IMG/VR virus record: IMGVR_UViG_3300042516_003452
Location: 1 to 64,000 of that record
Strand: one strand, 5' to 3'
DNA length: 64,000 nt
Origin: a virus
In this document: positions 49,625 to 63,950 of the stretch, in pieces
How the letters are laid out: every line of letters begins with the position of its first letter
Numbering within the stretch: position 1 is the first letter of the stretch
Program-made: the position numbers and the translations under genes
The notes under the pieces: generated by a model
What the model was told of the DNA's origin: nothing
Seen by the model: only the letters and a program-made list of their open reading frames with translations
Database searches by the model: none

Positions 49625-50062
49625 ATGGAAGCGCTCAGCCAGCTCGACGTTCACAACCCTGATCACATCAGTGTCATCACTCGCGATGGAAAGATTACCG
49701 TCTCGGTTACCAAGGACGGAGCATCCGTGACCCTTGGCTTTCCTATCCGCAATACATTTGACACTACCCCCCGATTCCCCCTGCAACAACAGCCAGCACC
49801 ACAGGTAACGGCTGTTAAGGAGATCCAGGAGACACCTAAAGTTCTCAAGAAGAAGAAGACAAGGGTTAGTCCTGTAGGTAACTGCAAGCTAACCCCTGAG
49901 AAAGTCAGGAACATTAAGCAAGGTCTTGTTGATCCAGGCGTTGCTAAAGGTTTTGACAGCCGTCAGAAACTTTACGAATGGTTTGCTGACATTTATAAGG
50001 TGAGCTACCACACCATCTCCAACATTGACAAAGGTCTGGCCTGGAGAGGCGTAAAGATCTAA
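49625..50062 (+). CDS. Protein with C-terminal HTH-like domain
   Basis: KLTPEKVRNIK...ADIYKVSYHTISNI..G.AW. Confidence 0.65.
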   Translation: MEALSQLDVHNPDHISVITRDGKITVSVTKDGASVTLGFPIRNTFDTTPRFPLQQQPAPQVTAVKEIQETPKVLKKKKTRVSPVGNCKLTPEKVRNIKQGLVDPGVAKGFDSRQKLYEWFADIYKVSYHTISNIDKGLAWRGVKI

Positions 50063-50093: not shown

Positions 50094-50121
50094 GGACCTG
50101 GACATGTCCTTAAACTGTCCA
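50094..50121 (+). ncRNA. H-type pseudoknot leader motif (family A), copy 1
   Basis: GGAC-C-UGGACA-U-GUCC-UUAAAC-UGUCCA. Confidence 0.75.
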
Positions 50122-50143
50122 TTCCTTTTACTCAGTTCAAACC

Positions 50144-50281
50144 ATGACTCAACTCGATCCCAACTACAACGCTGACTTGCTTGATGCCATGGCCGACATG
50201 GCATACGAACAAGAGCAAGCCATGCGTGAAGAATATGAACTCAACCCACCTGAACAGGAGACTTATGATGACCAAGCATGA
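50144..50281 (+). CDS. Small acidic protein (45 aa)
   Basis: MTQLDPNYNADLLDAMADM... Confidence 0.55.
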   Translation: MTQLDPNYNADLLDAMADMAYEQEQAMREEYELNPPEQETYDDQA

Positions 50282-50356
50282 ACACGACGATGACATCATC
50301 TTGCATGTCATCGTTATCATTTCAATCTTCATTCAAATCATTCTGGAGGCACTCCA

Positions 50357-50725
50357 ATGTCTTACATCTCAGAACTCAAGAAGTTCTACCCCAAAACTTA
50401 CAAGGTCCGTTACGCAGTCAACGCCTACAACACTCACAAGTACTTCGAACACGAAGACCCAACGGTCATCACCGTCCACCAAACAACGCTCAACTACGGC
50501 GGTCCAGAGGAAGGTGGATGGTGGTACCAGCAAGGCAACCCAGTCCTCAGCCACTGCATCTTCTCCAAGAAGCAGGCGATCCAAACCTACGTCAAGTACT
50601 TCGAAGAGTACGAGATCGAAGGTCAGCCCAGTCTTGGAGACACCACAACAAGCTCAAACATTGAGCTAAGTTTCTCCAACGGATACGCTCAAGTGTATCC
50701 TCAGATTCGTCCACACTATTGCTAA
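50357..50725 (+). CDS. Hypothetical protein
   Basis: NYGGPEEGGWWY motif. Confidence 0.7.
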   Translation: MSYISELKKFYPKTYKVRYAVNAYNTHKYFEHEDPTVITVHQTTLNYGGPEEGGWWYQQGNPVLSHCIFSKKQAIQTYVKYFEEYEIEGQPSLGDTTTSSNIELSFSNGYAQVYPQIRPHYC

Positions 50726-50728
50726 GTC

Positions 50729-50971
50729 ATGCAAGCAACTGCTGTACCAAACCTCAGCATTAATCAACGCAACATCTACATGTATTTCCTGAACCACAGG
50801 AAGAAGTACGGCAAGACTCCTTGCTTCGTACCAAAGTGTACAACTCAAGTATCAAGGCTTGATCAATATCTCAACGCCTTAACGAAACTTGAGCAGTACG
50901 GATTACTACGCGTTGAACGGTGCAGTGATAACTACACCGGCTGGATCATGACTGAACCTAGACAACACTAG
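50729..50971 (+). CDS. Winged-helix-like small protein
   Basis: LSINQRNIY...ALTKLEQYGLL. Confidence 0.55.
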   Translation: MQATAVPNLSINQRNIYMYFLNHRKKYGKTPCFVPKCTTQVSRLDQYLNALTKLEQYGLLRVERCSDNYTGWIMTEPRQH

Positions 50972-50988
50972 CGTTATACGCACATAAG

Positions 50989-51029
50989 CCTGGGCATCAC
51001 CGACGTAAGTACGGTGTGTAAGTCCCAGG
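50989..51029 (+). ncRNA. UAAGU-bulge hairpin motif (family B)
   Basis: CCUGGG-CA..CACCG/CGGUG..UG-UAAGU-CCCAGG. Confidence 0.65.
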
Positions 51030-51049
51030 ATTCACCTCAACCTAAACCA

Positions 51050-51325
51050 ATGACCTATCCCGAAGTCAACTGGAAGAAGAACGAGTATCACCAACTGCAA
51101 GAGGTGGTGAACCTCCTCAAAGCAATCCAAGAACGTGAGAGCAAGCGCCATCAAATGGACGAGCATCTCACTCCACATACCGCAGATGTGGTACTGGAAG
51201 TCATAGGCATGCTCGAAGATGAGATCGACTATGACCCAAGTCCTTCCGAAGGGGGCGAACCGCCTATCACACTGGATGAAATGCATACTGCTGCATGGAA
51301 AGAACATCAAGCCATGCATAGCTAA
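51050..51325 (+). CDS. Hypothetical protein
   Basis: GGEPPITLDEMHTAAW. Confidence 0.6.
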   Translation: MTYPEVNWKKNEYHQLQEVVNLLKAIQERESKRHQMDEHLTPHTADVVLEVIGMLEDEIDYDPSPSEGGEPPITLDEMHTAAWKEHQAMHS

Positions 51326-51465
51326 CCCCCCTGCACCCCCCGAAGGGAGTACCAGGAGCTAACCTTCTATTAGATAAGACATACTTATCTGTTGCTCTCT
51401 GTTACTTCCCTTCCTTACCCCTTGACTACCCTGGTAGACTCAACACACTTACTCAACTCATCTCA

Positions 51466-51672
51466 ATGAAAGACAACACTCCTCGCATACCAGACTCACT
51501 GGATATGCAAAGACTTCAAGCCATGCAACTTGTTGCTCGCATGAAGGAAACATCAGATCGTCTCGGCATCGGATTCATCGGGGGCTTTATTGCCCCCAAT
51601 GGAGAGAAATTCGTCATGTCCAATATGGACGATGAAGACTACAACGCACTCATGCCGGAGGATCTGAAATGA
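51466..51672 (+). CDS. Hypothetical protein
   Basis: AC-rich leader. Confidence 0.6.
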   Translation: MKDNTPRIPDSLDMQRLQAMQLVARMKETSDRLGIGFIGGFIAPNGEKFVMSNMDDEDYNALMPEDLK

Positions 51673-51736
51673 ATACCTTATTCATCGCAGTACTTTCTGT
51701 GATGATTATTTGTGGAACAATCATGATTTTAGAGAA

Positions 51737-51934
51737 ATGACCAAGCGTTTGCCCATCAGCTTTGATCGCACCATCCATGGTGTGAACATCACCGAACACG
51801 GTGTCAAATCTTATAGCAAAGCAGTGAAGCTTGGTCCTTTCCAAGTAACACTCAATGCTAGTCCGAATGGTGTCAAGGGATCAATCAGTATCCCTGGCAC
51901 AGGACTTAGCATTCCAAACATTAAGATAATCTGA
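51737..51934 (+). CDS. DUF4236-like small protein
   Basis: KLGPFQVTLN...SISIPGTGLS. Confidence 0.55.
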   Translation: MTKRLPISFDRTIHGVNITEHGVKSYSKAVKLGPFQVTLNASPNGVKGSISIPGTGLSIPNIKII

Positions 51935-51940
51935 AGAATT

Positions 51941-52117
51941 ATGACCTATCAAGAACTTTTATCTCAACTTGAAGTAATGAGTCAAGAACAATTAAACATG
52001 GATGTAACTGTTTATGTCTGTGATACTGAAGAATATTATGCAATCCAAGATGAAATTGTTTTTGCCACAGAAGAATGTGGCGTACTTGATATAGATCATC
52101 CCATATTGTATTTGTAA
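51941..52117 (+). CDS. Small AT-rich gene (58 aa)
   Basis: MTYQELLSQL...QLNMDVTVY. Confidence 0.55.
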   Translation: MTYQELLSQLEVMSQEQLNMDVTVYVCDTEEYYAIQDEIVFATEECGVLDIDHPILYL

Positions 52118-52122
52118 GTAAC

Positions 52123-52148
52123 TGGGCATCCTTACGGTGTAAGTCCCA
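52123..52148 (+). ncRNA. UAAGU-bulge hairpin motif (family B)
   Basis: UGGG-CAUC-CUUAC-GGUG-UAAGU-CCCA. Confidence 0.6.
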
Positions 52149-52176
52149 AACCTTGTCCACTTACTCAATTCAACTT

Positions 52177-52365
52177 ATGTCTGCTTACACTGAAGACCTT
52201 ACCATGTTTGATCGAATTAATCTGGCTGCCTGCGCACAGCGCAGAGCAACAGATAATCTATTTGATTCAAATCGTTGGAATGGCGAGTACGACACAGCAC
52301 GTTTGTGGATGAAGTATCGCCTCATCAAGACCACCACTTATTCGTACATTGACGAAGACTCATGA
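52177..52365 (+). CDS. Hypothetical protein
   Basis: ORF after RNA motif. Confidence 0.5.
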   Translation: MSAYTEDLTMFDRINLAACAQRRATDNLFDSNRWNGEYDTARLWMKYRLIKTTTYSYIDEDS

Positions 52366-52619
52366 CTGTCCTTGCAATCGAAGACACCCTATTCACTGAC
52401 ACCCATGTCACTGTTACAGCAGTTGTTGACGAAATGCGGTTGCTTTATCACGCAACTCATCTCGACCCTGAAGAGTGGGCTCCTGCATTGTGTACAACAA
52501 CTGTTGAACTGGATCCAGAGGAACCAATCCCTCTTGATGAAGATGGCTTCTGTGCCTATCTTGATCAGCTCGATCCTCAATGGGAACTGGTCGAACGCGA
52601 TGACTTCGATCTAGATTGA
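52362..52619 (+). CDS. Acidic hypothetical protein
   Basis: ATGA-coupled; DPEEWAPALC. Confidence 0.6.
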   Translation: MTVLAIEDTLFTDTHVTVTAVVDEMRLLYHATHLDPEEWAPALCTTTVELDPEEPIPLDEDGFCAYLDQLDPQWELVERDDFDLD

Positions 52620-52640
52620 TCGACTAATCATCTGACCAAT

Positions 52641-52668
52641 CGTCCTGGGCATGACGTTAAACTGCCCA
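52641..52668 (+). ncRNA. H-type pseudoknot leader motif (family A), copy 2
   Basis: CGUC-C-UGGGCA-U-GACG-UUAAAC-UGCCCA. Confidence 0.75.
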
Positions 52669-52689
52669 TCCTTTTACCCATTCAAATCA

Positions 52690-54414
52690 ATGCAATTCCA
52701 ACTCCCCTCCAACCTGCAAACCGAACTCCTTGCTTATGACCCAACACTGAAGGTGTTGGCTAAGCAGACTAGGACCGCATCAACCAAGAAGGCTAAGTAT
52801 CCCCTCGGTAACATTCCGCACCTTATCCCACATAACGTGGTGCGCGAATCAGATCAGCAAGCTGCGATTGATGATATCAACCAGCAGAAAGCACCTGATC
52901 GTTACAGAGTATTTACCACGCCTGTGGACGTAGCAACTCCACAGGCCAGACTCAAAGTCATTGCCATCTTGTATCACTACGAACAAGTATGGTACGCAGC
53001 ATGGCTACCTCCCAAGCAGCAAGCTGATGAGTATGTGTATGGCTATGCCTACGCATTCAAGAACACAGCGGCTGCTGCTAAGACTGCACCCCATCACATC
53101 TGGACCAGCAAAGACAAGTGCATCGAGCACGAAGGTGCTCGTGGCGTGCAGACCTTTACTTATTCAATGAACATCACCGAGGGTGATGTTCAATCAAGTG
53201 AAGGTAGTGGCTGGCGTGCCTACCAATGGCAAGCCTTTAATCTTCACTGCCAGAAAGGACGCGAGATTATTGAGCATTGCGTCCGTCCATACGAAGCAAG
53301 CCTACGGGAAAATATGCCCACATGGTCTGATTCCCGTGGATTGTTTGATCGTATCCGCTGCAAGAACGTCTTTGATGCTGCTGACATTCCTCCAAAAATG
53401 GCCGAGCTTCTTGATCTAGAGCAAGGTCTAACTGTTGATAACTTACTCAATGCAGCAATTGAATTCAACAAGAACCCTAACTTTCCATCATCAACGTTTT
53501 GTGTACTGGAAAGAATCAGTCACATCATTTCCAAGCCAGCAATCAAGAAGCTGCTGCAGGCAGAGCTTGATCGCTGCACACTTGCATACAACAACCCTAA
53601 TAACACTGAGCGCAAGCCAATTACTCAAGGCTTTAGAACCTTTGTCCACGTCATTGATTCCATTGACTGGATCAACAGGCTATGGCCTGACTGCCCACTT
53701 GATTACTACCAAACCTATTACAAAGAACTTCGTTACATCAGACTGAGTCAAGTGCGTACAAGCAGCATTAGCTCCAACTCAAATGCATTTGTTAGTTGGT
53801 TGCGTGAACACATGCCTGTTGCATCGATGTTCACAATGCTGCGCAAACAGCTCGAACAACAAACCTTGACTGGTCGAGATGCGGAGGTTGGCTATGCACG
53901 CTTTAGTTTCTTTGAACTAAATGACACATTTTCCATGGCAATCCGTATCCTTGACCATGGCAAAGAACTTGCACCACCCAAGCGTTGGCGCATTGATGAC
54001 TTCCATGACTATGTGCAAGCTGAATCCTGGAAGATCCAGAACCCTAACGAATCGTTGCGTCAAGATCTATTCCCTGAACCCATCAGGGTTACACGCAATG
54101 GTGAGACCTGGTCATTTTTCCAGCCTGTTGACACACATCAACTAGCTATGTGGGGCCAGGCCGTACGCAATTGCGTCGGCTCTGCATCACACTATGCTGA
54201 TGACATCAAGAAGCGTAAGCACTTCATCGTGCTGTGCATGATTGATGGTAAGCCCACATTCACCATCCAGTTGGTGGTTGACATGGGCCTGATGTCCGTC
54301 AAGCAAATCTCTGGTGTCGCTAACCAGCGGCTCACTGAAGACCAACGTGAGGCTTACACAGAAGCCTTCCGTGAGGTCTTGCAACAACGGGAGAAGCAGC
54401 TACAATCTGCCTGA
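52690..54414 (+). CDS. PcfJ-like domain protein
   Basis: FHD..., LAMWGQAVRNCVGS..Y, FTIQL..QISG..N. Confidence 0.7.
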   Translation: MQFQLPSNLQTELLAYDPTLKVLAKQTRTASTKKAKYPLGNIPHLIPHNVVRESDQQAAIDDINQQKAPDRYRVFTTPVDVATPQARLKVIAILYHYEQVWYAAWLPPKQQADEYVYGYAYAFKNTAAAAKTAPHHIWTSKDKCIEHEGARGVQTFTYSMNITEGDVQSSEGSGWRAYQWQAFNLHCQKGREIIEHCVRPYEASLRENMPTWSDSRGLFDRIRCKNVFDAADIPPKMAELLDLEQGLTVDNLLNAAIEFNKNPNFPSSTFCVLERISHIISKPAIKKLLQAELDRCTLAYNNPNNTERKPITQGFRTFVHVIDSIDWINRLWPDCPLDYYQTYYKELRYIRLSQVRTSSISSNSNAFVSWLREHMPVASMFTMLRKQLEQQTLTGRDAEVGYARFSFFELNDTFSMAIRILDHGKELAPPKRWRIDDFHDYVQAESWKIQNPNESLRQDLFPEPIRVTRNGETWSFFQPVDTHQLAMWGQAVRNCVGSASHYADDIKKRKHFIVLCMIDGKPTFTIQLVVDMGLMSVKQISGVANQRLTEDQREAYTEAFREVLQQREKQLQSA

Positions 54415-54427
54415 GCCCGCACGGTTT

Positions 54428-54459
54428 ACCAGCCTTAGCCTCGATACTAGGGCTGGTTT
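54428..54459 (+). terminator. Stem-loop, possible terminator
   Basis: ACCAGCCTTAG/CTAGGGCTGGT followed by TT. Confidence 0.45.
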
Positions 54460-54464
54460 CAACT

Positions 54465-54692
54465 ATGACCGACTACACCGATGATCAGCTACTCGCTATG
54501 GCTATGGCCAACATTGGTGAGTACATCACTGACAACTCACCGCAGTACATCCTGATTGACGAAGATCCTCGCAATGAGGATGACTACGACACATGGGACT
54601 ATGGCACTGAGCCATTACCCCAAGATCACACTTGGCACTCCACATCAATTGATGTAGAGGTAAGTCCAAGTGACGCAGACGTGACGGAATAG
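54465..54692 (+). CDS. Acidic hypothetical protein; 3' end overlaps RNA motif and tRNA
   Basis: MTDYTDDQLLAMA... Confidence 0.5.
   Translation: MTDYTDDQLLAMAMANIGEYITDNSPQYILIDEDPRNEDDYDTWDYGTEPLPQDHTWHSTSIDVEVSPSDADVTE
54629..54672 (+). ncRNA. UAAGU-bulge hairpin motif (family B) abutting tRNA
   Basis: CACUUGG-CA-CUC.ACAUC/GAUGU.GAG-G-UAAGU-CCAAGUG. Confidence 0.65.
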
Positions 54693-54760
54693 GTATACGT
54701 AACGCACTTAAAATGCGTCGGCCATTGGCCTTGCGGGTTCGACTCCCGCCGTCTGCACCA
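54675..54760 (+). tRNA. trnL: tRNA-Leu(UAA), intronless, CCA encoded
   Basis: GCAGACG/CGTCTGC acceptor, ACGCA-CTTAAAA-TGCGT anticodon arm, long variable arm, GGTTCGACTCC T-arm, ACCA end. Confidence 0.95.
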
Positions 54761-54783
54761 ATCCACTTACTCAACTCAAGACC

Positions 54784-55146
54784 ATGCAATTCTTTGCTGC
54801 TTTCAAGTCCCTCATCCCTGAGTTCCATGCTTATTCAGATGAGGACAACCGCTACAACCTTGGTGCCACCTGGACTGCAGCCGATGGCCTGAAGGACTAT
54901 CACAACCTGGAGCTACGGTACATCCGTAACTCTGAGCGTCTTGCTCTCCAGGGTGAGCCCTGTCCTGATGGCAGCTGGCGCTACGTCGAGCCCAGTGGTG
55001 CAGTCCATACCATCAGCCCTGAACGTGCTAAGCACTTCATGGAGCAGACACAAGCTCATGCCACACTCATGGTTGGCATGCTTGATAAGTTACGAGATGC
55101 TGGCATCCTCGATCAGATGGTAGACACCACGGCAGAACCTGCCTAA
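54784..55146 (+). CDS. Hypothetical protein
   Basis: AC-rich leader, 120 aa. Confidence 0.65.
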   Translation: MQFFAAFKSLIPEFHAYSDEDNRYNLGATWTAADGLKDYHNLELRYIRNSERLALQGEPCPDGSWRYVEPSGAVHTISPERAKHFMEQTQAHATLMVGMLDKLRDAGILDQMVDTTAEPA

Positions 55147-55164
55147 GATCACTGCGGAATGTTC

Positions 55165-55190
55165 GGCCCCTGCGCAAGCGGGGGTCTTTT
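55165..55190 (+). terminator. Intrinsic terminator
   Basis: GGCCCCTGC-GCAA-GCGGGGGTC then TTTT. Confidence 0.65.
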
Positions 55191-55194
55191 CTTC

Positions 55195-55524
55195 ATGATC
55201 ACTCCAGCTCAGTCAGAGATAGTTACAGATGTAACTGAACTCATTGCAGATTGTATCCCTGATTCCGAATGGGATCGGGTACGCAATGCAATCGTCGAAC
55301 GCATTGTCGACAACATGCCATCACAAGTTTTGCTGCAGTTAACTGACAGCATCGATAACTTTGATCTGGCTGAACTAATCCTCATTACCCACTACAAGGA
55401 AGCACCAAATCTTGAGTTGATTGTTGACGCATTCAAACTCATTGGTGCTGAACAAACTGCTGACCTCCTCGACTCACTCAACATTCAACAAGAGAATGGC
55501 ATTCCAGAAGGCGATCCTTCCTGA
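55195..55524 (+). CDS. Acidic hypothetical protein
   Basis: ORF after terminator. Confidence 0.55.
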   Translation: MITPAQSEIVTDVTELIADCIPDSEWDRVRNAIVERIVDNMPSQVLLQLTDSIDNFDLAELILITHYKEAPNLELIVDAFKLIGAEQTADLLDSLNIQQENGIPEGDPS

Positions 55525-55900
55525 CTGTCCTCAATGCAATCAACCTGGACTCAGAGTTATTGAATCCAGGAAGACAGCGATGTCTACCAGACGACGCAAG
55601 AAGTGTGAATGCTGTGGCTACAGGTTTACAACTCATGAAGTTACAGCAGACTTCTTTGAAGAAGCCAAGCACAACCTCTATCTTGTTGAACAACTCCACA
55701 AACTTATGAAGGGAACACCACTCACATCCGGGGTGGAACCACCCCCATCTGGGGTGAGTGCATCTGAATTCAAAGCACTCAACAAATGCAGTGACTGCCA
55801 TCACAACATTGATGGTTGTCATTGCGCCTTTGACTTTCCTGAGTACGACACTGCTGAGTCGTACGACTGCAATCACTTTCAACTCTGGAAATCCAAATGA
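55496..55900 (+). CDS. NrdR-like N-terminal zinc-ribbon protein lacking ATP cone
   Basis: CPQC...RVIESR...RRRKKCECCGYRFTTHE; second Cys cluster at C-terminus. Confidence 0.75.
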   Translation: MAFQKAILPDCPQCNQPGLRVIESRKTAMSTRRRKKCECCGYRFTTHEVTADFFEEAKHNLYLVEQLHKLMKGTPLTSGVEPPPSGVSASEFKALNKCSDCHHNIDGCHCAFDFPEYDTAESYDCNHFQLWKSK

Positions 55901-56199
55901 CTACCAAGCGTCAATACGATTACATCATTGGTGATCGCGTAGCAGAGCGCCCTAAATCCCATGGCATTTTTGCTGTACGCAATGAAACCAAAGATCGTAT
56001 TCAGCAGTACAGGTCCCAACGCTACGGCACTGTTGTTGGTATCAACCTGAAACCAAACAAGTCAGGTGCCAAGCAGAAGTTCCTACTAATCAGGTGGGAT
56101 CATCTGCAGACTCCCACGGAACATGCACAGATGAGGATCTGTCCTGCTGATCAGCTTCAGCGTTTACAATCTGAGGGTTATGGATTCGAAGTCGAATGA
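55897..56199 (+). CDS. Hypothetical SH3/KOW-like protein
   Basis: IGDRV...YGTVV...IRWD. Confidence 0.55.
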   Translation: MTTKRQYDYIIGDRVAERPKSHGIFAVRNETKDRIQQYRSQRYGTVVGINLKPNKSGAKQKFLLIRWDHLQTPTEHAQMRICPADQLQRLQSEGYGFEVE

Positions 56200-56552
56200 A
56201 AGTCGACAAGCCATGGGGTTGGTACAACACACTGACCCCAGAACAAACCTCATTGTTCCGTGGCTACCTCGTTAAAGAACTCCATGTCAACAAAGGCCAT
56301 CGCCTCAGTCTTCAGCGCCATCAACACCGGTGTGAACACTGGATCGTTGTCAATGGCGAAGGATTGTTTGAGTGTGATGGCCGTACACAAATTGTGAATG
56401 AAGGTACTCACTTGTACATTCCAAAGCAATCAGTGCATCGCCTTACTGCAACAGAGCAAGACATTCGTATTGTCGAAGTTCAATGCGGTGAAGTAATCTC
56501 TGAAGACGACATCGAACGTCTGGAGGATGACTATGATCGATCACAGAACTAG
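56196..56552 (+). CDS. Mannose-6-phosphate isomerase type II-like cupin
   Basis: KPWGWY, RLSLQRHQHRCEHWIVV.G, IVEVQ.G..SEDDIERLED. Confidence 0.88.
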   Translation: MKVDKPWGWYNTLTPEQTSLFRGYLVKELHVNKGHRLSLQRHQHRCEHWIVVNGEGLFECDGRTQIVNEGTHLYIPKQSVHRLTATEQDIRIVEVQCGEVISEDDIERLEDDYDRSQN

Positions 56553-56553
56553 C

Positions 56554-56745
56554 ATGGTTGTTCAAGCAATCATTTGGAGTGTAGTCATCACAGGATTCAG
56601 CCTCCTACTCGTTGGCATGATCTTTGGTGAGCCAGAAACAACCGAGGATAAATTCAAAGTTGTTGACAACTACAAAGATTGCCAAGTCATCCAGTACAGT
56701 CCAAGCAACGCTGCTCGCTACCAGTACTTTCTTCACTGTCCATGA
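56554..56745 (+). CDS. Small membrane protein
   Basis: TM plus FKVVDNYKDC..YFLHCP. Confidence 0.55.
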   Translation: MVVQAIIWSVVITGFSLLLVGMIFGEPETTEDKFKVVDNYKDCQVIQYSPSNAARYQYFLHCP

Positions 56746-57380
56746 ACGTTGAACTTACCTGGGTAACACCCAACGCAGAAGAACTCATTGTCAAGATGGC
56801 ACGGGTATCTGCACCCAAGAATCAAGACAACATGGACACTGCTCCACGGTTGTTGCGGTATCTGATCAAACACAAGCACTGGTCGCCATTTGAAATGGCA
56901 AACATGTGCGTAGAAATTGAGACGACGCGTGCAATCTCACCACAGATTCTTCGTCACAGATCATTCTCATTTCAGGAATTTAGTCAGCGTTATGCAGACA
57001 CCAGTGAGCTTGGCTCAGCTGTTATTCCTCATCTGCGTCGTCAAGATCACAGGAATCGTCAGAACAGTATCGATGATCTGTCTGCTGATGCAATCAGTGG
57101 TTATTACCGCCGCATTAGCAAGTTGTATGAAGACGCTGAACATCTCTACCGCGAGATGGTTAGCAGCGGCATTGCAAAGGAATGTGCAAGGTCCGTCTTG
57201 CCACTTTCGACACAGACTCGTCTTTTCATGAACGGTACACTGCGTTCATGGATCCACTACCTCCAGCTTCGTTGTGACCCAGGAACCCAGCTCGAACACA
57301 GGCAAATCGCAGAAGCAGTCAAAGGAATCTTCTGCAAAGAATTCCCCATCATTGGAGAAGCAGCCTTTGCAGAAGACTGA
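56742..57380 (+). CDS. thyX: Flavin-dependent thymidylate synthase
   Basis: HWSPFE, QILRHRSFSFQEFSQRY, AKECARSVLP, TQLEH. Confidence 0.95.
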   Translation: MNVELTWVTPNAEELIVKMARVSAPKNQDNMDTAPRLLRYLIKHKHWSPFEMANMCVEIETTRAISPQILRHRSFSFQEFSQRYADTSELGSAVIPHLRRQDHRNRQNSIDDLSADAISGYYRRISKLYEDAEHLYREMVSSGIAKECARSVLPLSTQTRLFMNGTLRSWIHYLQLRCDPGTQLEHRQIAEAVKGIFCKEFPIIGEAAFAED

Positions 57381-57399
57381 TGAACTCAAGCAGTGGCGA

Positions 57400-57516
57400 T
57401 CAGAAGGTCGCGGCGCTTTGTTTTTTTAATTCCATCACGGCATGCTTGGACTCCACATCCTTGCGTGCCAGCTTCTTCCGTTTGTCCACCAAGTAAACGA
57501 TCAATGCTTTGTTCAT
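57400..57516 (-). CDS. Small basic protein (38 aa)
   Basis: MNKALIVYLVDKRKKLARK..., ATGA-coupled to the DUF4278-like gene. Confidence 0.5.
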   Translation of the reverse strand: MNKALIVYLVDKRKKLARKDVESKHAVMELKKQSAATF

Positions 57517-57665
57517 TTGATTTGACCTCCAGTGACAAAGGGAAAGTAGCAAACGTTACGGTAGGTCAGGCAGAGCCAGGGACGGTGGGCTAAGTTCCAC
57601 CAAGCTCTGTCTGCCTTGGCCTGATCCTCTTGGTTGTATTTGCAACCACGATACGTTAACGTCAT
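57513..57665 (-). CDS. DUF4278-like protein (50 aa)
   Basis: MTLTYRGCKY...LTYRNVCY tandem motif. Confidence 0.7.
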   Translation of the reverse strand: MTLTYRGCKYNQEDQAKADRAWWNLAHRPWLCLTYRNVCYFPFVTGGQIK

Positions 57666-57672
57666 GGTTTTA

Positions 57673-57686
57673 GTATCTATTGATAC
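57673..57686. promoter_or_regulatory. NtcA-box-like site GTA-N8-TAC
   Basis: GTATCTATTGATAC between a minus-strand TATAGT (57691-57696) and the DUF4278-like ATG. Confidence 0.55.
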
Positions 57687-57748
57687 GGAAACTATATGAC
57701 GATTGATGTATATGATGTCGTTCACCAGGTAACACAACTCAAGATTCA

Positions 57749-58045
57749 ATGAAAGGTTTTGGTTCAACTCAACAACCAACGAAGTCAGCAGCGTATTGGA
57801 TCGCTGCCTATGCCAAAGACAATGAAGATGAACCACTTGGTGTGTTCAAAAAAGTTCTGGCCTACAAACCAGGTCAGGACAAAGAACTCTTGATGATTCG
57901 TTACTGCAATTCAGTCATGAAGATCAACCGAAACATATGGGAGATGCTGGTCCACCAAGGACCAACTGAAATCCCAGACTCTGGTGACCAAATTGTTTTA
58001 CGATTATCCAGGGAAAAGTTTAAGGGCTCTGCTCAAGTAAACTGA
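57749..58045 (+). CDS. Hypothetical protein
   Basis: MKGFG start. Confidence 0.6.
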   Translation: MKGFGSTQQPTKSAAYWIAAYAKDNEDEPLGVFKKVLAYKPGQDKELLMIRYCNSVMKINRNIWEMLVHQGPTEIPDSGDQIVLRLSREKFKGSAQVN

Positions 58046-58068
58046 CTAACCATTACCACTAATCACCC

Positions 58069-58251
58069 ATGAACGCTGAAAACAAACGATTGATCAAACA
58101 GTTTGTACTGGATCGCCTGTGGAGCGACACAGATCAGCTTCGTCTTGATCTCGACGTTTATTCAATTACTCGCAGTATTGATCCGCTGGAAGCAATGGAG
58201 GAATACGAGTACCAAGTTGAGCGAATCCAAAAGATGCTTGCCTGCTACTGA
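58069..58251 (+). CDS. Hypothetical protein
   Basis: 60-aa ORF. Confidence 0.5.
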   Translation: MNAENKRLIKQFVLDRLWSDTDQLRLDLDVYSITRSIDPLEAMEEYEYQVERIQKMLACY

Positions 58252-58272
58252 AAAGCCGCTCCCCAATCACCC

Positions 58273-58632
58273 ATGACACAACAACATCTCATCGCCCCAC
58301 CGCCTGAGCTGGTGCAGCAGTGGCGAGAAGCGCCCGAGTTCTCTGCATTGTCTCCGTGTGTGATGGTCACTTGCACCACTACCAAGCTGCAAGACATCGC
58401 TACTCAAGCTGCCCAATGGGGCGCAGACCAGGAGCTGGAGGCGTGCTGTGCGCTGATGGACGACTGGGGTCTTGATGGCGAAGACCTTATGCAGTGCCGC
58501 CGCCCCAAGCCGCCGAGCTTGAAGGAGCAGGCGCTGGATGATCTGCACATTGCTTTTGACAGGGGCTGTCTCAGCGAAGGACAGGCCGACACTATCCGCC
58601 GCGCCCTTGAACAACTCGCCGACAACGAGTAG
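58273..58632 (+). CDS. Cyanophage accessory protein (higher GC)
   Basis: PPPELVQQW...GADQELEACC...RRPKPPSLKEQAL. Confidence 0.65.
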   Translation: MTQQHLIAPPPELVQQWREAPEFSALSPCVMVTCTTTKLQDIATQAAQWGADQELEACCALMDDWGLDGEDLMQCRRPKPPSLKEQALDDLHIAFDRGCLSEGQADTIRRALEQLADNE

Positions 58633-58664
58633 TCACCTTCACTAACATTCCCGATCAGGAAGAT

Positions 58665-58690
58665 GGACCTAAGTAAGTCCTTAAACTGCT
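58665..58690 (+). ncRNA. H-type pseudoknot leader motif (family A), copy 3
   Basis: GGAC-CUA-AGUA-A-GUCC-UUAAAC-UGCU. Confidence 0.65.
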
Positions 58691-58725
58691 GATTAGTTTT
58701 TCTTATCATTCAATTCAACTCAACC

Positions 58726-59496
58726 ATGAAACTTCTCAAGTTTTCCAAGGGCAACGGCAAGCTCAGCAACCGCCTGATCTTTAGCCTGCCTGCTGGCTAC
58801 TCATGCCCACACGCTGGTGTGTGCAAGACCTTTGCTGATCGCACTACTGGTGCCATCACTGACCTGCCTCAGTACACAGGTGTGACAGCTGAACGGGACT
58901 TCCGTTGCTTTGCTGCCATGGCAGAGGTACGGCCTAACGTGCGGGAAGCGCGTTGGCACAACTGGGATCTGCTGCGTGAAACCATTCACATGAATGGGAA
59001 TCAAGCCATGTTGATTCGTGACTTGATCGACCTGTCTCTCCTGATGCATCCGCCCAAGAAGCTGGTTCGCATCCATGAGTCTGGTGACTTCTGGACTGAG
59101 AACTATATGAAGGCTTGGATGATGGTTGCCCAGGGTAGGCCCGAACAAAAGTTCTATGCCTACACCAAGTCCCTTGGTATGTGGTACAATCTGCGTGACA
59201 TGATTCCACCCAACTTCTATCTCACTGCATCGCACGGTGGTACGCTCGACTACCTAATGGAAAAGTATCCCGAAGTATTCACCAGGGTTGCTCACGTTGT
59301 ATACACAGAAGAACAAGCCGCAGAGCTTGGTCTTGAGATTGACCATGACGACAGCCATTGTCTTGGTGACAAACCATTCGCACTACTGGTCCATGGTTCC
59401 CAGCGGGCTGGTAGTGAGGCAAGTCAAGCCATCTCTCAACGTAAGAAAGAAGGTGGATTTGTGGGATACGGCAAATCAAATCAGAAGACAAGCTGA
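58726..59496 (+). CDS. Gene-88 (gp88)-like protein
   Basis: FSLPAGYSCP.A..C, CFA, VRIHESGDF, FYAYTKS. Confidence 0.75.
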   Translation: MKLLKFSKGNGKLSNRLIFSLPAGYSCPHAGVCKTFADRTTGAITDLPQYTGVTAERDFRCFAAMAEVRPNVREARWHNWDLLRETIHMNGNQAMLIRDLIDLSLLMHPPKKLVRIHESGDFWTENYMKAWMMVAQGRPEQKFYAYTKSLGMWYNLRDMIPPNFYLTASHGGTLDYLMEKYPEVFTRVAHVVYTEEQAAELGLEIDHDDSHCLGDKPFALLVHGSQRAGSEASQAISQRKKEGGFVGYGKSNQKTS

Positions 59497-59552
59497 AGAC
59501 ACTTGCGTTATTTGAAAGATCGGATAACATCTGTCCGGTCTTTCAATTATTC

Positions 59553-59786
59553 ATGTCGTACGTCATTGCCACTTGGAAGGAGGGTAAGGCATTTGCCATT
59601 ACTGCCTGCTCTTCTTCCAATCAATTCCAATTAATTCCATTAGATTCAGAAGTAGCTCTGAACAAGATTTTCTCCCATCCTTACCGGGCTGGTGCTCAGT
59701 CGATCTTGGCGTGGATTAACAACAATGACAGCAAACTTGCCGGTGCACAGCTCTCAATTCAAGATGAAGCCAGATTCCGTAAATGA
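59553..59786 (+). CDS. Hypothetical protein
   Basis: 77-aa ORF before polymerase. Confidence 0.5.
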   Translation: MSYVIATWKEGKAFAITACSSSNQFQLIPLDSEVALNKIFSHPYRAGAQSILAWINNNDSKLAGAQLSIQDEARFRK

Positions 59787-61584
59787 ATCCTGGTTGATCT
59801 TTGACATTGAAACCAATGGCTTGTACGACCAGGCAACGGAAGTCTTTTGCATTGTTATTTATGACATCAACAAACAACAGACTTTTAGTTATGGGCCTGA
59901 TCGCACTGCTGATGCTCTTGCTCATTTGGCAACCGCTGATGTACTCATTGGTCACAATGTGATTTTTTATGACGTTCCTGTTCTGCAAAAGCTGCATTCA
60001 TTTGTCAGCAAAGCACGCATCATTGACACGCTCATTTGCACCAGATTGATCTGGCCCAAAGAAATCCTGGAGGATCTTGACAATGAACAATATCCGCAGG
60101 TTCCCAAGGCGAACCGTGGATCCGCATCACTTAAGGCCTGGGGATGGCGCCTGGCCAATCACAAGATCACGTTCAAAGACTTCTCCGAATTTTCTCAGGA
60201 GATGTTGGACTACTGTGTCCAGGACGTTATGGTCACCCGTAGCCTTTGGCAATTCATCGTCAAACAAAACTATCCAGAGTCATCGCTCCGGCTTGAGCAC
60301 GACTTTGCTCTTGCCATTAACAAACAAATTAGAGCAGGTTTTCCTTTTGATGTTGATGCATGCCTTGATCTCGTGGATGGTCTTAGAGCAAAACAGAAAG
60401 AACTGGAATCTCATCTGAAGGAACTCTTTCCGCCCATTAAGCACGAAGAGATCTTTGTGCCCAAGGTCAACAACACCAAACGTGGTTATGTCAAAGGACA
60501 ACCTTTCACCAAAGTCCGCTACGAAGAGTTCAATCCAGGATCTCGTGATCAGATTGTTAATCGACTCGGCGCTAAGTACGGATGGAAACCACAGAGCTTT
60601 ACTGAAAAAGGAAATCCAATTGTTAATGATGAAGTACTAGAGCAGCTTCCGTATCCTGAAGCACAACCACTGGCTGAGTACATGCTTATAAAGAAGAGGC
60701 TCGGTCAAATCGCTGATGGAAACAATGCTTGGCTCAAGCTTGTCAACAACGATGATCTCTGTATACACGGCGATCTGGTTACTAACGGCTGCATTACTGG
60801 GCGCTGTTCACACCGTTATCCAAACATGGGTCAGGTCCCGGCAGCTTACTCACCGTATGGAAAAGAATGCCGAACTTTGTTCCATGCTCCTTACGGGTGG
60901 GACCTTGTTGGTGTTGACGCTAAAGCACTTGAACTTCGTTGCCTCGCTGGATACCTTGCCGTCTGGGATGGAGGTGAGTACGCCACTCTGGTGACAGACG
61001 AATCGATTGACATTCACACCTACAACCAACAGCAGTTTGGTGTGGAGACCAGGGACATCAGCAAACGTTTGCTGTATGGAATGCTCTATGGATGTGGTGC
61101 GGTGAAGGCTGGCACTATCATTGATCCGAATGAAAAAGATCCAGAAGTTCTGCGTCAACTAGGAAGATCTGCAATTAATTCATTCATGACAGGTGTACCA
61201 GCGCTCAAGAAATTGAAGCAACAACTAGAATACACTGTGCAAGAACGTGGATTCCTGCGTGGATTGGATAAGCGTGCACTCTTCTGCCGCTCTGAATTCA
61301 AAGCATTGAATGTATTACTCCAGGCAGCTGGTGCTCTCATCATGAAGCAGGTGGTCATCAACCTGCATAACAACCTGGAAGGACTGGGACTTGTACATGG
61401 CAAGGACTGGATCCAACACGCCATGGTTCACGATGAAGTACAGCTGTCTTGTCCCAAGGATCTGACTGCAACAATCCAAGAACAAGCTTTGCTTGCATTC
61501 CCGCAAGCCCAAGACTTCTTTGGATTCCGCTGTAAGATTGAAGGCGACTCACGCGTCGGCTCGAACTGGGCACAGACACACTGA
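59764..61584 (+). CDS. polA: T7-like family A DNA polymerase with 3'-5' exonuclease
   Basis: FDIETNGL, GHN..YD, YCVQDV; DAKALELR, RDISKRLLYGMLYG, VHDEVQ. Confidence 0.95.
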   Translation: MKPDSVNESWLIFDIETNGLYDQATEVFCIVIYDINKQQTFSYGPDRTADALAHLATADVLIGHNVIFYDVPVLQKLHSFVSKARIIDTLICTRLIWPKEILEDLDNEQYPQVPKANRGSASLKAWGWRLANHKITFKDFSEFSQEMLDYCVQDVMVTRSLWQFIVKQNYPESSLRLEHDFALAINKQIRAGFPFDVDACLDLVDGLRAKQKELESHLKELFPPIKHEEIFVPKVNNTKRGYVKGQPFTKVRYEEFNPGSRDQIVNRLGAKYGWKPQSFTEKGNPIVNDEVLEQLPYPEAQPLAEYMLIKKRLGQIADGNNAWLKLVNNDDLCIHGDLVTNGCITGRCSHRYPNMGQVPAAYSPYGKECRTLFHAPYGWDLVGVDAKALELRCLAGYLAVWDGGEYATLVTDESIDIHTYNQQQFGVETRDISKRLLYGMLYGCGAVKAGTIIDPNEKDPEVLRQLGRSAINSFMTGVPALKKLKQQLEYTVQERGFLRGLDKRALFCRSEFKALNVLLQAAGALIMKQVVINLHNNLEGLGLVHGKDWIQHAMVHDEVQLSCPKDLTATIQEQALLAFPQAQDFFGFRCKIEGDSRVGSNWAQTH

Positions 61585-61587
61585 ACC

Positions 61588-61764
61588 ATGAGCAACAAAA
61601 CTACTGTTGAACTTACAGGAAAAGCAATTGGCTCTTTGCTTGCTTTTGTTTTGTTTTCTGTGTTGATTAAGTACGCTTTTGATTTTACCTGGTTTCAAGG
61701 ATGTGTCCTTGGATATTTGTTTTGGTTAATCCGAGAAGGTATCCAAACCATTAAGAGTAATTAG
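61588..61764 (+). CDS. Small two-TM protein (58 aa)
   Basis: Manual translation, hydrophobic, T-rich. Confidence 0.5.
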   Translation: MSNKTTVELTGKAIGSLLAFVLFSVLIKYAFDFTWFQGCVLGYLFWLIREGIQTIKSN

Positions 61765-61769
61765 TAATT

Positions 61770-61797
61770 CGTCCTCAGGTATGACGTTAAACTGCCT
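61770..61797 (+). ncRNA. H-type pseudoknot leader motif (family A), copy 4
   Basis: CGUC-CUC-AGGUA-U-GACG-UUAAAC-UGCCU. Confidence 0.75.
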
Positions 61798-61818
61798 TAA
61801 CACCAACTTCTCAAAACA

Positions 61819-62649
61819 ATGAACATTGCTGATGTCTGCGCTGTCCTCATGGAACAACCCCGTGAGGTATTCACCAGTGCGACTGCATCCAACCTGCGTG
61901 CAGTAGTTAATCTACCTCCGGTTGGTTCCAACAAAGCTCCAACTCCAGTCGAACTCAATGTCTACGGAAAAGCCTGCGATCGGTTCCGTCACAACAAAGC
62001 AAACGACCGTCTACTTATTTACGGCTCCAAGCTACGTTTCGACGTTAACACCCGAGCGTATTCGTTACATGGAGGAGTTGTCCACCAGATCACGGATGAG
62101 TTTCCAATCCTCAATCGCGTCATCCTCTCGGGACGTTGCGTGAAAGATCTGGATCTCAGTGATCCTCGTGTGTTTAAAACAACGCCTGATGGCTTGATGA
62201 TTTGTAACCAGAGCCTTTCTGTTTACATGGGTAAGAATCAGGCTGATCTGTTTAACTTCTATGCCATCAATACGGCTAACGATAAGTTAAACAACGCAGA
62301 GATCATTGCTAACTTCACCCGTAAAGGTGTGGGCATTACAGTGTCTGGTCGTCTGGTCACCGATGCCTGGACCGATAAGCAAAGCAATGAACGCAAGATC
62401 AACACCAAGATCCAGGTGAATCAAATCACCTTGGCTCCCAAAGCTGATGCCACCAAGAACACTGAGTCTCAGACAAAACCTGTGCAAACCAACACACCGG
62501 TTGCACCAAGCTCAAGTGACGCTAGCCTATGGGGCGCAGCTAACGCACCACAACCTACTGATCCCTGGACCCACGCCTCTGGCGGTGGTCTGCCTGACCT
62601 CCCTGGTCAATACTCCAACTCACCTTCATTCGACGAAGTTCCTTTCTAA
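61819..62649 (+). CDS. ssb: Single-stranded DNA-binding protein with apparent tandem OB folds
   Basis: NRVILSGR, RKGVGITVSGRL....W.DK, C-terminal DEVPF. Confidence 0.8.
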   Translation: MNIADVCAVLMEQPREVFTSATASNLRAVVNLPPVGSNKAPTPVELNVYGKACDRFRHNKANDRLLIYGSKLRFDVNTRAYSLHGGVVHQITDEFPILNRVILSGRCVKDLDLSDPRVFKTTPDGLMICNQSLSVYMGKNQADLFNFYAINTANDKLNNAEIIANFTRKGVGITVSGRLVTDAWTDKQSNERKINTKIQVNQITLAPKADATKNTESQTKPVQTNTPVAPSSSDASLWGAANAPQPTDPWTHASGGGLPDLPGQYSNSPSFDEVPF

Positions 62650-62879
62650 TGACACTCCCAAGAGTCAACAACTACACGCTCTTGCAAGAGAGCGATAACT
62701 CCAGTTGCATCTACAAGTTCCAGGGTGATTACTTTCCTGATGTACTTGTTCACATGGTGGACTTTCTAAAGGGAGTTGGTTTCCTTGAAGAGACAATCCA
62801 TCGTGGAATGTACGATGCTGCTGAGGAGTACTTCAAGTACCAGCAAAGCATCTGCTCTGAGTCAAGTCCATTTGACTAA
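62649..62879 (+). CDS. Hypothetical protein
   Basis: DFLKGVGF motif; coupled to ssb stop. Confidence 0.55.
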   Translation: MTLPRVNNYTLLQESDNSSCIYKFQGDYFPDVLVHMVDFLKGVGFLEETIHRGMYDAAEEYFKYQQSICSESSPFD

Positions 62880-62884
62880 GAACA

Positions 62885-62912
62885 CGTCCTGGGTATGACG
62901 TTAAACTGCCTA
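62885..62912 (+). ncRNA. H-type pseudoknot leader motif (family A), copy 5
   Basis: CGUC-C-UGGGUA-U-GACG-UUAAAC-UGCCUA. Confidence 0.75.
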
Positions 62913-62933
62913 ACTCCAAACCCTGAACTAACT

Positions 62934-63950
62934 ATGACCGCATCCATGACTACTAAGAAAACGTCTGCACTTGCCACTCGTGGACTGGAATCTTTCAAGA
63001 TGTTCCAGTCCAAAGAATTTGTATCTGGTTACCAGAACCTTGTTACAATTCAACCCCTGAACAAATCAAAAGTTCGTGGTTGGTTTGTCCGTAAGTCCGA
63101 CCTGGATACTTGCGGATGGAATGCTACTGAAGATGACTTTGATTCCAGTTCTGTTATTTGGAACTACAAGCAGACCTTTGGTATGGCGCCCAATACCTCC
63201 ATTGAGGAGGGCCTCAACTTTGTTGCGCCTCGCATGCAGATCTTGTTGCGTTCTCCCCTGATGGTTGAAGAAACCACAGGGATGCGTCAAACGATTGGCA
63301 CCTTTGAGCATCCAGAGGTGAAGGAAATGTTTGAGAACGACAAGCTGGCTGCTGATCTTGCCAATAGTAAAGGTGAGATGTACAAGCGTAAGTACAGCGT
63401 GCGTACCAAGTATCTGGTGTATGTGCTGACCAAGGACAACAAGCGTGCTCATAAGATCCCCATGGTCCTGACCTTGAAGGGATTGAATGGCACTGATGTG
63501 TCCGAGAAGGTCAAGCTGTATGAAAAGGAAATGTCCAAGTGCCTGAGCAAAGCACTGGACTCTGAGGTGCCCCTGGCATTCAACGAAAAGTTCTATGCCA
63601 CAACGGTGTTTATCCCCATGCTTGCCAACGAGATGCGTGGTGCCAACAACGTTGAGATTTGCGCCATCGAATCCTTCGAGATTCCTGACTACAGCTCCCA
63701 AGATGAAGCGATTAGCTCACTGAATCGCCTCAGCATTCCCGATGAAGATCGTGAATCAACCTGGAAGTTCCAGGAAATGTTTGGTGATTACATCAACCAA
63801 CACGCTCGTCAGGATGCAGAACGCCTTGGTGGTGCCTATGGAATCAAGCAAGGTGTTGAAATCCTTCCCGTGTCCCGTACTACGGATGCAGTTGAAGTAA
63901 AAGCTTTACCTGCTCGTGACCCGATGACTGGTGAGGATGAGTCACTCTGA
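62934..63950 (+). CDS. Replication-region protein (DUF5895-like, possibly an ssDNA-annealing or binding protein)
   Basis: KYLVYVLTKDNK..HKIP..LTLKG; context. Confidence 0.5.
   Translation: MTASMTTKKTSALATRGLESFKMFQSKEFVSGYQNLVTIQPLNKSKVRGWFVRKSDLDTCGWNATEDDFDSSSVIWNYKQTFGMAPNTSIEEGLNFVAPRMQILLRSPLMVEETTGMRQTIGTFEHPEVKEMFENDKLAADLANSKGEMYKRKYSVRTKYLVYVLTKDNKRAHKIPMVLTLKGLNGTDVSEKVKLYEKEMSKCLSKALDSEVPLAFNEKFYATTVFIPMLANEMRGANNVEICAIESFEIPDYSSQDEAISSLNRLSIPDEDRESTWKFQEMFGDYINQHARQDAERLGGAYGIKQGVEILPVSRTTDAVEVKALPARDPMTGEDESL

Follow-up and report, generated by a model that had tools for sequence, protein, structure and literature searches.

A coremin-like RNA pseudoknot repeated upstream of cyanophage replication genes as a candidate barrier to 5'-to-3' mRNA decay

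A compact H-type RNA pseudoknot recurs upstream of early and replication genes in the lake cyanophage represented by IMG/VR record IMGVR_UViG_3300042516_003452. The stretch of DNA analysed, referred to here as the window, comprises the first 64 kb (positions 1 to 64,000) of this 84,492-bp viral record. The pseudoknot (hereafter the knot) is read on the sense strand, belongs to an uncatalogued and widespread family, and has a core matching that of coremin, an exoribonuclease-resistant RNA (xrRNA). We tentatively favour the explanation that it stays permanently folded, mechanically blocks RNase J from degrading the message 5'-to-3' and thereby insulates the downstream cistron, a reading that draws on comparative analysis. 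The nearest named relative of the phage is S-EIV1, a polar freshwater Synechococcus phage and the sole megablast match among named phages (6% of the query covered). The genome holds six knots, five of them in the window, and all six fall in a rightward early/replication gene block at approximately 46–73 kb of the genome.

The consensus knot is 28 nt long and is built from a 4-bp stem 1 (S1, NGWC/GWCN), a 1-nt loop 1 (L1, C), a covarying 6-bp stem 2 (S2), a 1-nt junction and a 6-nt loop 3 (L3). In the window copies, the order is S1 5' strand, C, S2 5' strand (6–7 nt), a single U or A, S1 3' strand, UUAAAC and S2 3' strand, with S1 being either GGAC/GUCC or CGUC/GACG. The sequence TTAAACTG is present five times on the plus strand, every time at one of the five knot sites. 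Flanks are not kept between copies, so only the 28 nt are repeated. A covariance model was built from 11 seed copies, keeping copy 4 out of the seed, and run with filters off over the whole 84.5-kb genome. It returned exactly six copies at 30–45 bits, including the unseeded copy 4, well clear of the next best match at 11.7 bits. A sequence-only reading of the window had described five knots and proposed such a model as a check. All five were found where it had placed them, on the plus strand and with the stems it had described; the genome total is six rather than five.

Conservation of the fold was examined in 80 related viral contigs, collected with the DUF5895-like protein of this phage as query. 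The model detected 245 copies, every one of them on the sense strand. Across the 11 seeds, 94.5% of cells are paired and six of the ten pairs changed on both sides in a compensatory manner. The best 150 matches contain 56 distinct sequences, in which 96.4% of cells are paired compared with 14–50% after sliding the partners by 1–3 columns; compensatory changes are seen in four of six S2 pairs and two of four S1 pairs. This alignment was fitted to S2 alone, and S1 pairing was therefore not structurally forced, though the sequence profile favours S1. In the same 56 sequences, columns 2-15 (G-C) and 4-13 (the loop-closing C-G) are invariant, U-A and A-U alternate in column 3-14, and covariation is free in column 1-16. 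S-EIV1 has six or seven knots at orthologous positions, ahead of orthologous genes and with differing stems. Its PcfJ copy, for example, reads UGUC...UGAGUA/UGCUCA, compared with CGUC...UGGGCA/UGCCCA in this genome. The weaker seventh S-EIV1 knot lies at L003:39502-39529 on the minus strand (24.8 bits).

Scans for the topology alone led to the same fold. Requiring AAA in L3, 83 related sequences gave 216 sense and 10 antisense matches, comprising 91 distinct knot variants; a fully unconstrained structural scan returned approximately 600–700 matches per strand and was uninformative. When L3 was left free in sequence and length, it measured 6 nt in 200 matches, 5 nt in one, and 4, 7 or 8 nt in none, and G·U pairs outnumbered A·C by 80 to 3. 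The first two L3 positions are variable, and positions 3–6 are AAAC at 93–99%. Near-invariance across variants was also seen for the first (C) and second-to-last (A) bases of the loop closed by S1. As the pairing is read on the sense strand, the element is an H-type RNA pseudoknot, in agreement with the compensatory and G-U-tolerant changes on which it had been proposed. L3 (UUAAAC) probably lies in the minor groove of S1, with A-minor contacts predicted there and a major-groove triple predicted at C5.

The inverted repeats inside the knot repeat could alternatively mark a DNA-level element, whether a protein operator, an origin or a hairpin promoter. N4-like phages offer a precedent, as they use DNA hairpin promoters. 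Operator half-sites, however, would be conserved, whereas those of the knot covary, with the 80 to 3 excess read as G·T over A·C 'pairs'. The uniform orientation of all 245 copies is a further argument for RNA, and the interleaved order of the arms would be senseless in double-stranded DNA. The DNA-level reading is close to refuted.

The knot corresponds to no catalogued family. An Rfam search of the window at gathering thresholds matched a tRNA alone, nothing overlapped any knot between 50 and 64 kb at E ≤ 10, and a tRNA was again the sole match in seven unrelated carriers at E ≤ 1. This search had been suggested as a check of novelty, which it upholds. Likeness to preQ1-I (RF00522) was considered separately. 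Both are H-type knots of about 30 nt with an A-rich tail starting UUAA, and the topology is that of preQ1-I, with a short P1, the A-rich tail in the minor groove and a P2 to which the 3' tail contributes. A riboswitch of this size would hold its ligand at the S1-S2 junction (C5, U12, C22) and thereby control start-site access; wide distribution and many invariant unpaired nucleotides would suit such a role. The junction loop of the knot, however, is 1 nt rather than 4–6 nt, and neither the preQ1-I covariance model nor any other riboswitch family matched at E ≤ 10. The 3' strand of S2 ends at least 18 nt before the AUG with no Shine-Dalgarno (SD) sequence to sequester, leaving no expression platform, and the downstream genes have neither a common metabolic theme nor a link to queuosine genes. 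We consider a preQ1-like riboswitch very improbable.

The sequence match is instead with coremin. Coremin (xrRNA-C) and its Watson-Crick variant xrRNA-WCC occur in a wide range of eukaryotic RNA viruses, beny- and cucumoviruses among them (Dilweg et al. 2019, PMC6546385; 2023, PMC10321173; 2023, PMC10520033). Coremin is described as (C)GUC-[YGAD]-GAC(G)-UUAAACUAC followed by a second hairpin (hp2), and is modelled as a mini-pseudoknot with a 1-nt pyrimidine L1, adenosines in the S1 minor groove, and a 3-bp S2 between loop positions 6–8 and spacer positions 18–20. Both Xrn1 and scanning ribosomes are stalled by coremin, which also induced frameshifting when a reporter screen was run with expression in E. 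coli. Its loop-closing C-G pair cannot be inverted. The loop follows the rule YGAD or YGNNAD (a pyrimidine first, G second, A second to last, and a last base other than C), and loops of 5–8 nt still resist Xrn1. In the spacer, U13 and U14 tolerate substitution, A16, A17, C18 and U19 do not, and A16–A20 are essential. An hp2 of at least 3–4 bp directly downstream is strictly needed for Xrn1 resistance.

Several of these features recur in the cyanophage knot. Its S1 is (C)GUC/GAC(G), a stem within the 3–4 bp of coremin and with the same invariant C-G closing pair. The first loop base is a pyrimidine (C) that forms the 1-nt L1, and the second-to-last loop base is an A that pairs with the U following UUAAAC. 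The spacer UUAAACU is fixed in length and varies at its first two U with AAAC largely kept, a natural variation that parallels the substitutions coremin tolerates, although position 20 is not the A that coremin needs. Both RNAs also occur as tandem copies and in intergenic or untranslated regions, and the 8-nt loop of the knot is within the functional range. The knot differs from coremin in the length of this loop and in having an S2 of six Watson-Crick or G·U pairs, compared with three, often non-canonical, in coremin. In 16 of 94 variants (17%) the loop ends in C, which coremin forbids, and the carriers of the knot are DNA phages and bacteria rather than eukaryotic RNA viruses. The comparison suggests a long-S2 variant of the coremin fold that may work in the same way. 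The fold, its conservation, the sequence match with coremin and the spacing rules given below are direct observations.

The five window copies all carry C as L1 and UUAAAC as L3, and all lie on the plus strand. Copy 1 (50094–50121, 37.7 bits) pairs GGAC/GUCC in S1 and UGGACA/UGUCCA in S2 with U at the junction, and begins 31 nt past the stop of the open reading frame (ORF) at 49625–50062. Downstream (50122–50281), a G-poor 22-nt leader without SD precedes a 45-aa ORF (ATG 50144) without Pfam match. Copy 2 (52641–52668, 45.2 bits; CGUC/GACG, UGGGCA/UGCCCA, junction U) begins 21 nt past the stop of ORF 52362–52619 and is followed (52669–54414) by a G-free 21-nt leader and a PcfJ-like gene (ATG 52690, 574 aa). 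In copy 3 (58665–58692, 34.1 bits), S1 is GGAC/GUCC, the junction is A, and the S2 strands UAAGUA and UGCUGA form four contiguous pairs plus a terminal U-A; a 33-nt leader and a GP88-family gene (ATG 58726, 256 aa) follow at 58693–59496. Copies 4 and 5 both have CGUC/GACG and junction U, and each begins 5 nt past a stop, those of ORFs 61588–61764 and 62649–62879, respectively. S2 of copy 4 (61770–61799, 30.2 bits; UCAGGUA/UGCCUUA) is one position longer, and a G-free 19-nt leader connects the knot to the SSB gene (61800–62649, ATG 61819, 276 aa). Copy 5 (62885–62912, 41.3 bits; UGGGUA/UGCCUA) is separated by a 21-nt leader from the DUF5895-like gene (62913–63950, ATG 62934, 338 aa). Pfam searches upheld the PcfJ, gp88, SSB and DUF5895-like assignments made from the sequence alone. 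The sixth copy, at genome positions 67223–67250 and beyond the window, has a third S1 (UGUC/GACA) and a new S2 (UGGUCA/UGACCA), and ends 21 nt before the ATG of a 38-aa ORF encoding a membrane peptide.

The knot consensus itself holds an AUG (A11-U12-G13). It is in frame with the downstream gene in copies 2 (52651) and 5 (62895), where ORF finders prolong the gene by 13 codons into the knot, a spurious 5' extension. In copies 1 and 4 it is out of frame, and copies 3 and 6 lack it. Use of this AUG as the true start was rejected, given that it is in frame in just two of six copies and absent from another two. Stop-codon readthrough into the downstream gene was also rejected: copy 5 would allow it, being open and in frame, but an in-frame TAA interrupts copy 4.

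Position relative to the neighbouring genes follows two rules. The end of UUAAAC lies 28, 27, 39, 26 and 27 nt from the ATG in copies 1 to 5, and the leaders contain 0–1 G and no SD, as had been reported. The near-fixed spacing claimed for these copies (26–28 nt in four, 39 nt in one) needs a small correction, in that the spacing has a hard lower bound and a right tail. Measured from the 3' end of S2, the AUG is never closer than 18 nt and most often 19–20 nt away, with a tail to 55 nt, and the distance differs within orthologous families (18–42 nt for GP88 and 21–29 nt for PcfJ). Leaders of the related sequences are C/A-rich and without SD, with G at 0–4% at nearly every position and at 8–24% at three; they are predicted to be unstructured (median folding energy 0). 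On the other side, S1 most often begins 5 nt past the upstream stop. This sharp mode accounts for 72 of 163 distinct contexts, from at least eight gene families, with almost none below 5 nt and a long right tail. The triplet 5 nt upstream is the stop T[GA]A. This 5-nt rule is new here. In the GenBank annotation of S-EIV1, knots fill the intergenic gaps almost exactly: the 54-nt gap before the GP88 homologue consists of 5 nt, the 28-nt knot and 21 nt. No promoter- or terminator-like site was found adjoining any knot, and the knots are therefore probably internal to long polycistronic transcripts.

The bacterial ribosome keeps mRNA single-stranded as far as about +11, counted from the first base in the P site, and covers approximately 15–18 nt upstream. 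By these values, 5 nt past a stop in the A site and 18 nt before an AUG are the closest spots at which the knot need not be melted. The knot edges thus match the footprints of terminating and initiating ribosomes. Selection would seem to keep the knot folded at all times and otherwise to pack it as tightly as the genome permits. The same 5-nt position is shared with the BWYV-type frameshift knots of luteoviruses, which lie 5 nt past the A-site codon and likewise have a short S1, a 1-nt C-containing L1 and an adenosine-rich L3 in the S1 minor groove. A −1 frameshift stimulator, however, follows a slippery heptamer by 5–8 nt within overlapping frames, whereas the cyanophage knot is intergenic and the codon ahead of it is a stop.

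These observations can be assembled into a model of mRNA protection. Each knot would sit within a polycistronic early/replication mRNA and, needing no protein, obstruct decay mechanically. Once an endonuclease had cut upstream, RNase J would degrade the RNA 5'-to-3' until it met the knot and stopped. The downstream cistron, encoding SSB, DUF5895, GP88, PcfJ or the 38-aa membrane peptide, would outlive the upstream RNA. Ribosomes would never melt the knot, since its start, at least 5 nt past the stop, is just beyond the entry tunnel when a ribosome terminates, and its end, 18 nt or more ahead of the AUG, is just beyond the footprint of a ribosome initiating on the unstructured, SD-less leader. 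A flaviviral xrRNA halts bacterial RNase J1 in vitro, acting as a general mechanical block. The stalling of the nuclease and the stabilising of the message by the knot are what we infer from these data.

The distribution of the knot was next assessed by an exact pattern search (CGTCC-N6-9-GACGTTAAACT) in viral contigs and species-representative bacterial genomes, counting a match in viral contigs as a true knot when at least five consecutive S2 pairs could form. The viral contigs yielded at least 145 matches, of which at least 104 qualified; approximately one would be expected by chance. Bacterial genomes gave at least 123 matches and at least 26 true knots. At least 61 true knots reside in loci without protein similarity to this phage. 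Among the matches listed, 34% of true knots lie inside long open frames compared with 69% of chance matches. Unrelated carriers place the knot before SD-bearing start sites at various distances (L150, L237, L293 and L297), in tandem (L125, L174, L184 and L240), or ahead of a hairpin or intrinsic terminator (the L088 group, L103, L178, L184, L185 and L296), much as coremin precedes hp2, and in several phyla it follows genes for small Cys-rich peptides. Such breadth across unrelated phages and bacteria points to a self-contained module acting on universal machinery and not to a lineage-specific protein operator.

This bears directly on the proposal that a phage protein (SSB, by analogy with T4 gene 32, or a different early protein) binds the knot, covers the 20-nt leader and coordinates a replication regulon. 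The SSB gene is among the carriers, and the placing of an H-type pseudoknot ahead of an unstructured leader resembles that in the gene 32 operator of T4, T2 and RB69, the precedent cited in the sequence-only reading. Conserved unpaired nucleotides (C5, A11, U12 and AAAC) could also form a protein recognition surface. However, these are the nucleotides that the protein-free coremin fold needs, and the phage SSB is of the bacterial OB-fold family PF00436. The gene 32 operator is confined to the SSB mRNA and relies on a long A/U-rich tract of at least 40 nt, whereas six unrelated genes per genome carry the cyanophage knot and its leaders are C/A-rich and about 20 nt, half the T4 length. An identical knot in loci without detectable protein similarity and in bacteria of many phyla makes a lineage-specific binder unlikely. 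We judge an operator improbable.

Alternatively, the knot may assist translation initiation, docking on the platform/S1 side of the 30S subunit or keeping the leader unstructured, as a standby site or enhancer that replaces the SD contact for a subset of highly expressed genes. Within the lineage, all copies share the sense orientation and precede a start codon, most often by 19–20 nt; leaders are G-free, unstructured and without SD; and one of the carriers is the gene for SSB, a protein needed in large amounts. The spacing rules are linked to the ribosome, and to that extent the earlier suggestion of a phage-wide translational enhancer or operator retains some ground, its gene 32-type form being weakened. 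An initiation element would, however, be expected to show a sharp optimum in place of a hard minimum with a tail to 55 nt that varies among orthologues. The knots of unrelated hosts before SD-bearing starts, in tandem or before terminators also argue against it, as does the sharing of the core with coremin, which works in eukaryotic systems. An initiation element is unlikely, though more probable than the other rivals.

Among the three functions that had been put forward (enhancer, operator and 5' exonuclease block), the exonuclease block gains most support, because the core matches coremin and cyanobacteria encode RNase J. The latter statement was confirmed in the genome of Synechococcus elongatus, used as control. 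RNase J is encoded in 18 of 20 genomes with true knots and in 12 of 20 with chance pattern matches alone, a co-occurrence that is suggestive only.

A number of points weigh against the decay barrier. The link with RNase J is weak (about p = 0.06), and phylogeny confounds it. At loop position 2 the knot has U or C, never the G that coremin needs, and spacer position 20 is a G, pairing with a pyrimidine, where coremin needs A. The hp2 that coremin requires is missing here and even depleted in the cyanophage leaders, being found in 8 of 149 distinct leaders compared with 28 ± 4.5 after shuffling. Frameshift pseudoknots of similar size, including the BWYV type, do not stall Xrn1. A decay barrier alone, moreover, does not demand closeness to the AUG; genome compaction against the lower bound may explain it. 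Since S2, loop position 2, position 20 and hp2 all differ, we do not file the knot as a member of the coremin family. One speculation is that the 6-bp S2 fills the space taken in coremin by the 3-bp S2 and the stacked hp2.

An endonucleolytic processing signal would act on the same transcripts. The coaxial S1-S2 helix (10–11 bp) might mimic a tRNA acceptor/T arm or mark a site for RNase P, E or III, so that cutting splits the polycistronic mRNA into separately translated units. Location fits, the knot being intergenic and internal to transcripts, and in plant viruses RNase P acts on pseudoknotted mimics of the acceptor arm. No conserved flank usable as a cleavage site or CCA-like tail was found, however, beyond the general C-richness of the leaders, and no tRNA-like or other Rfam family overlaps the knots at E ≤ 10. 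We regard processing as quite improbable.

Some further observations concern the unrelated carriers. In L184:4620-4800 (plus strand), three knots stand in tandem, and the first two are each trailed by a CCCC...GGGG hairpin and a U-run; xrRNAs in flaviviruses and coremins in some plant viruses are arrayed in tandem in a similar way. In metagenome-assembled bacterial genomes from several phyla (L220, L221, L228, L240, L257 and L307), the knot comes right after the conserved coding end CAYTGY..GA.GG.TG. (peptide ...HC..GC...), which suggests a small Cys-rich gene, possibly resembling precursors of ribosomally synthesised and post-translationally modified peptides. L286, from a bacterial genome collection, has three knots before SSB-like and MFEF-type small genes with SD-less leaders, and represents either a phage of the S-EIV1 kind or a prophage or contaminant that was binned with a bacterial assembly.

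Other structured RNAs were seen in the window and in S-EIV1. A tRNA gene (RF00005, 58 bits) lies at 54675–54757 on the plus strand, inside the early block between the PcfJ-like gene and the next ORFs. A 15-bp hairpin with a U-rich tail (59512–59546, plus strand) lies directly 3' of the GP88 gene; no other strong terminator-like structure occurs between knots 3 and 4. S-EIV1 (L003, minus strand) has two more repeated leader motifs, upstream of the coding-sequence starts at 43419 and 43732 and at 40711 and 41408. The first reads CUGAUCCGUCAAAGCGGGU, then a variable stem with a GUGCAAAC loop; the second reads AACCCUGGGCRUCCAUA...GUAUAAGUCCCAGGA. Both look like additional structured RNA families.

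Exoribonuclease-resistant RNAs have so far been known solely from eukaryotic RNA viruses. Literature searches on xrRNA with RNase J, and on exoribonuclease-resistant RNA with phage, found no prokaryotic case, and the three coremin papers make no mention of phages or bacteria. The knot could be the first natural prokaryotic example, a possibility we hold with a little more reserve than the decay barrier itself: a protein-free RNA with a coremin core that halts RNase J, is avoided by ribosomes, and sets the 5' boundary and lifetime of cistrons in phages and bacteria. The spacing rules (5 nt after the stop and 18 nt before the AUG) provide an in vivo estimate of both edges of the bacterial ribosome footprint. 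If the reading is correct, a 28-nt block to RNase J would explain how these phages tune the stability of single genes inside operons, and would link a plant-virus motif to bacterial RNA decay. It would also supply a very small mRNA-stabilising and insulating part for synthetic biology in cyanobacteria and Firmicutes.

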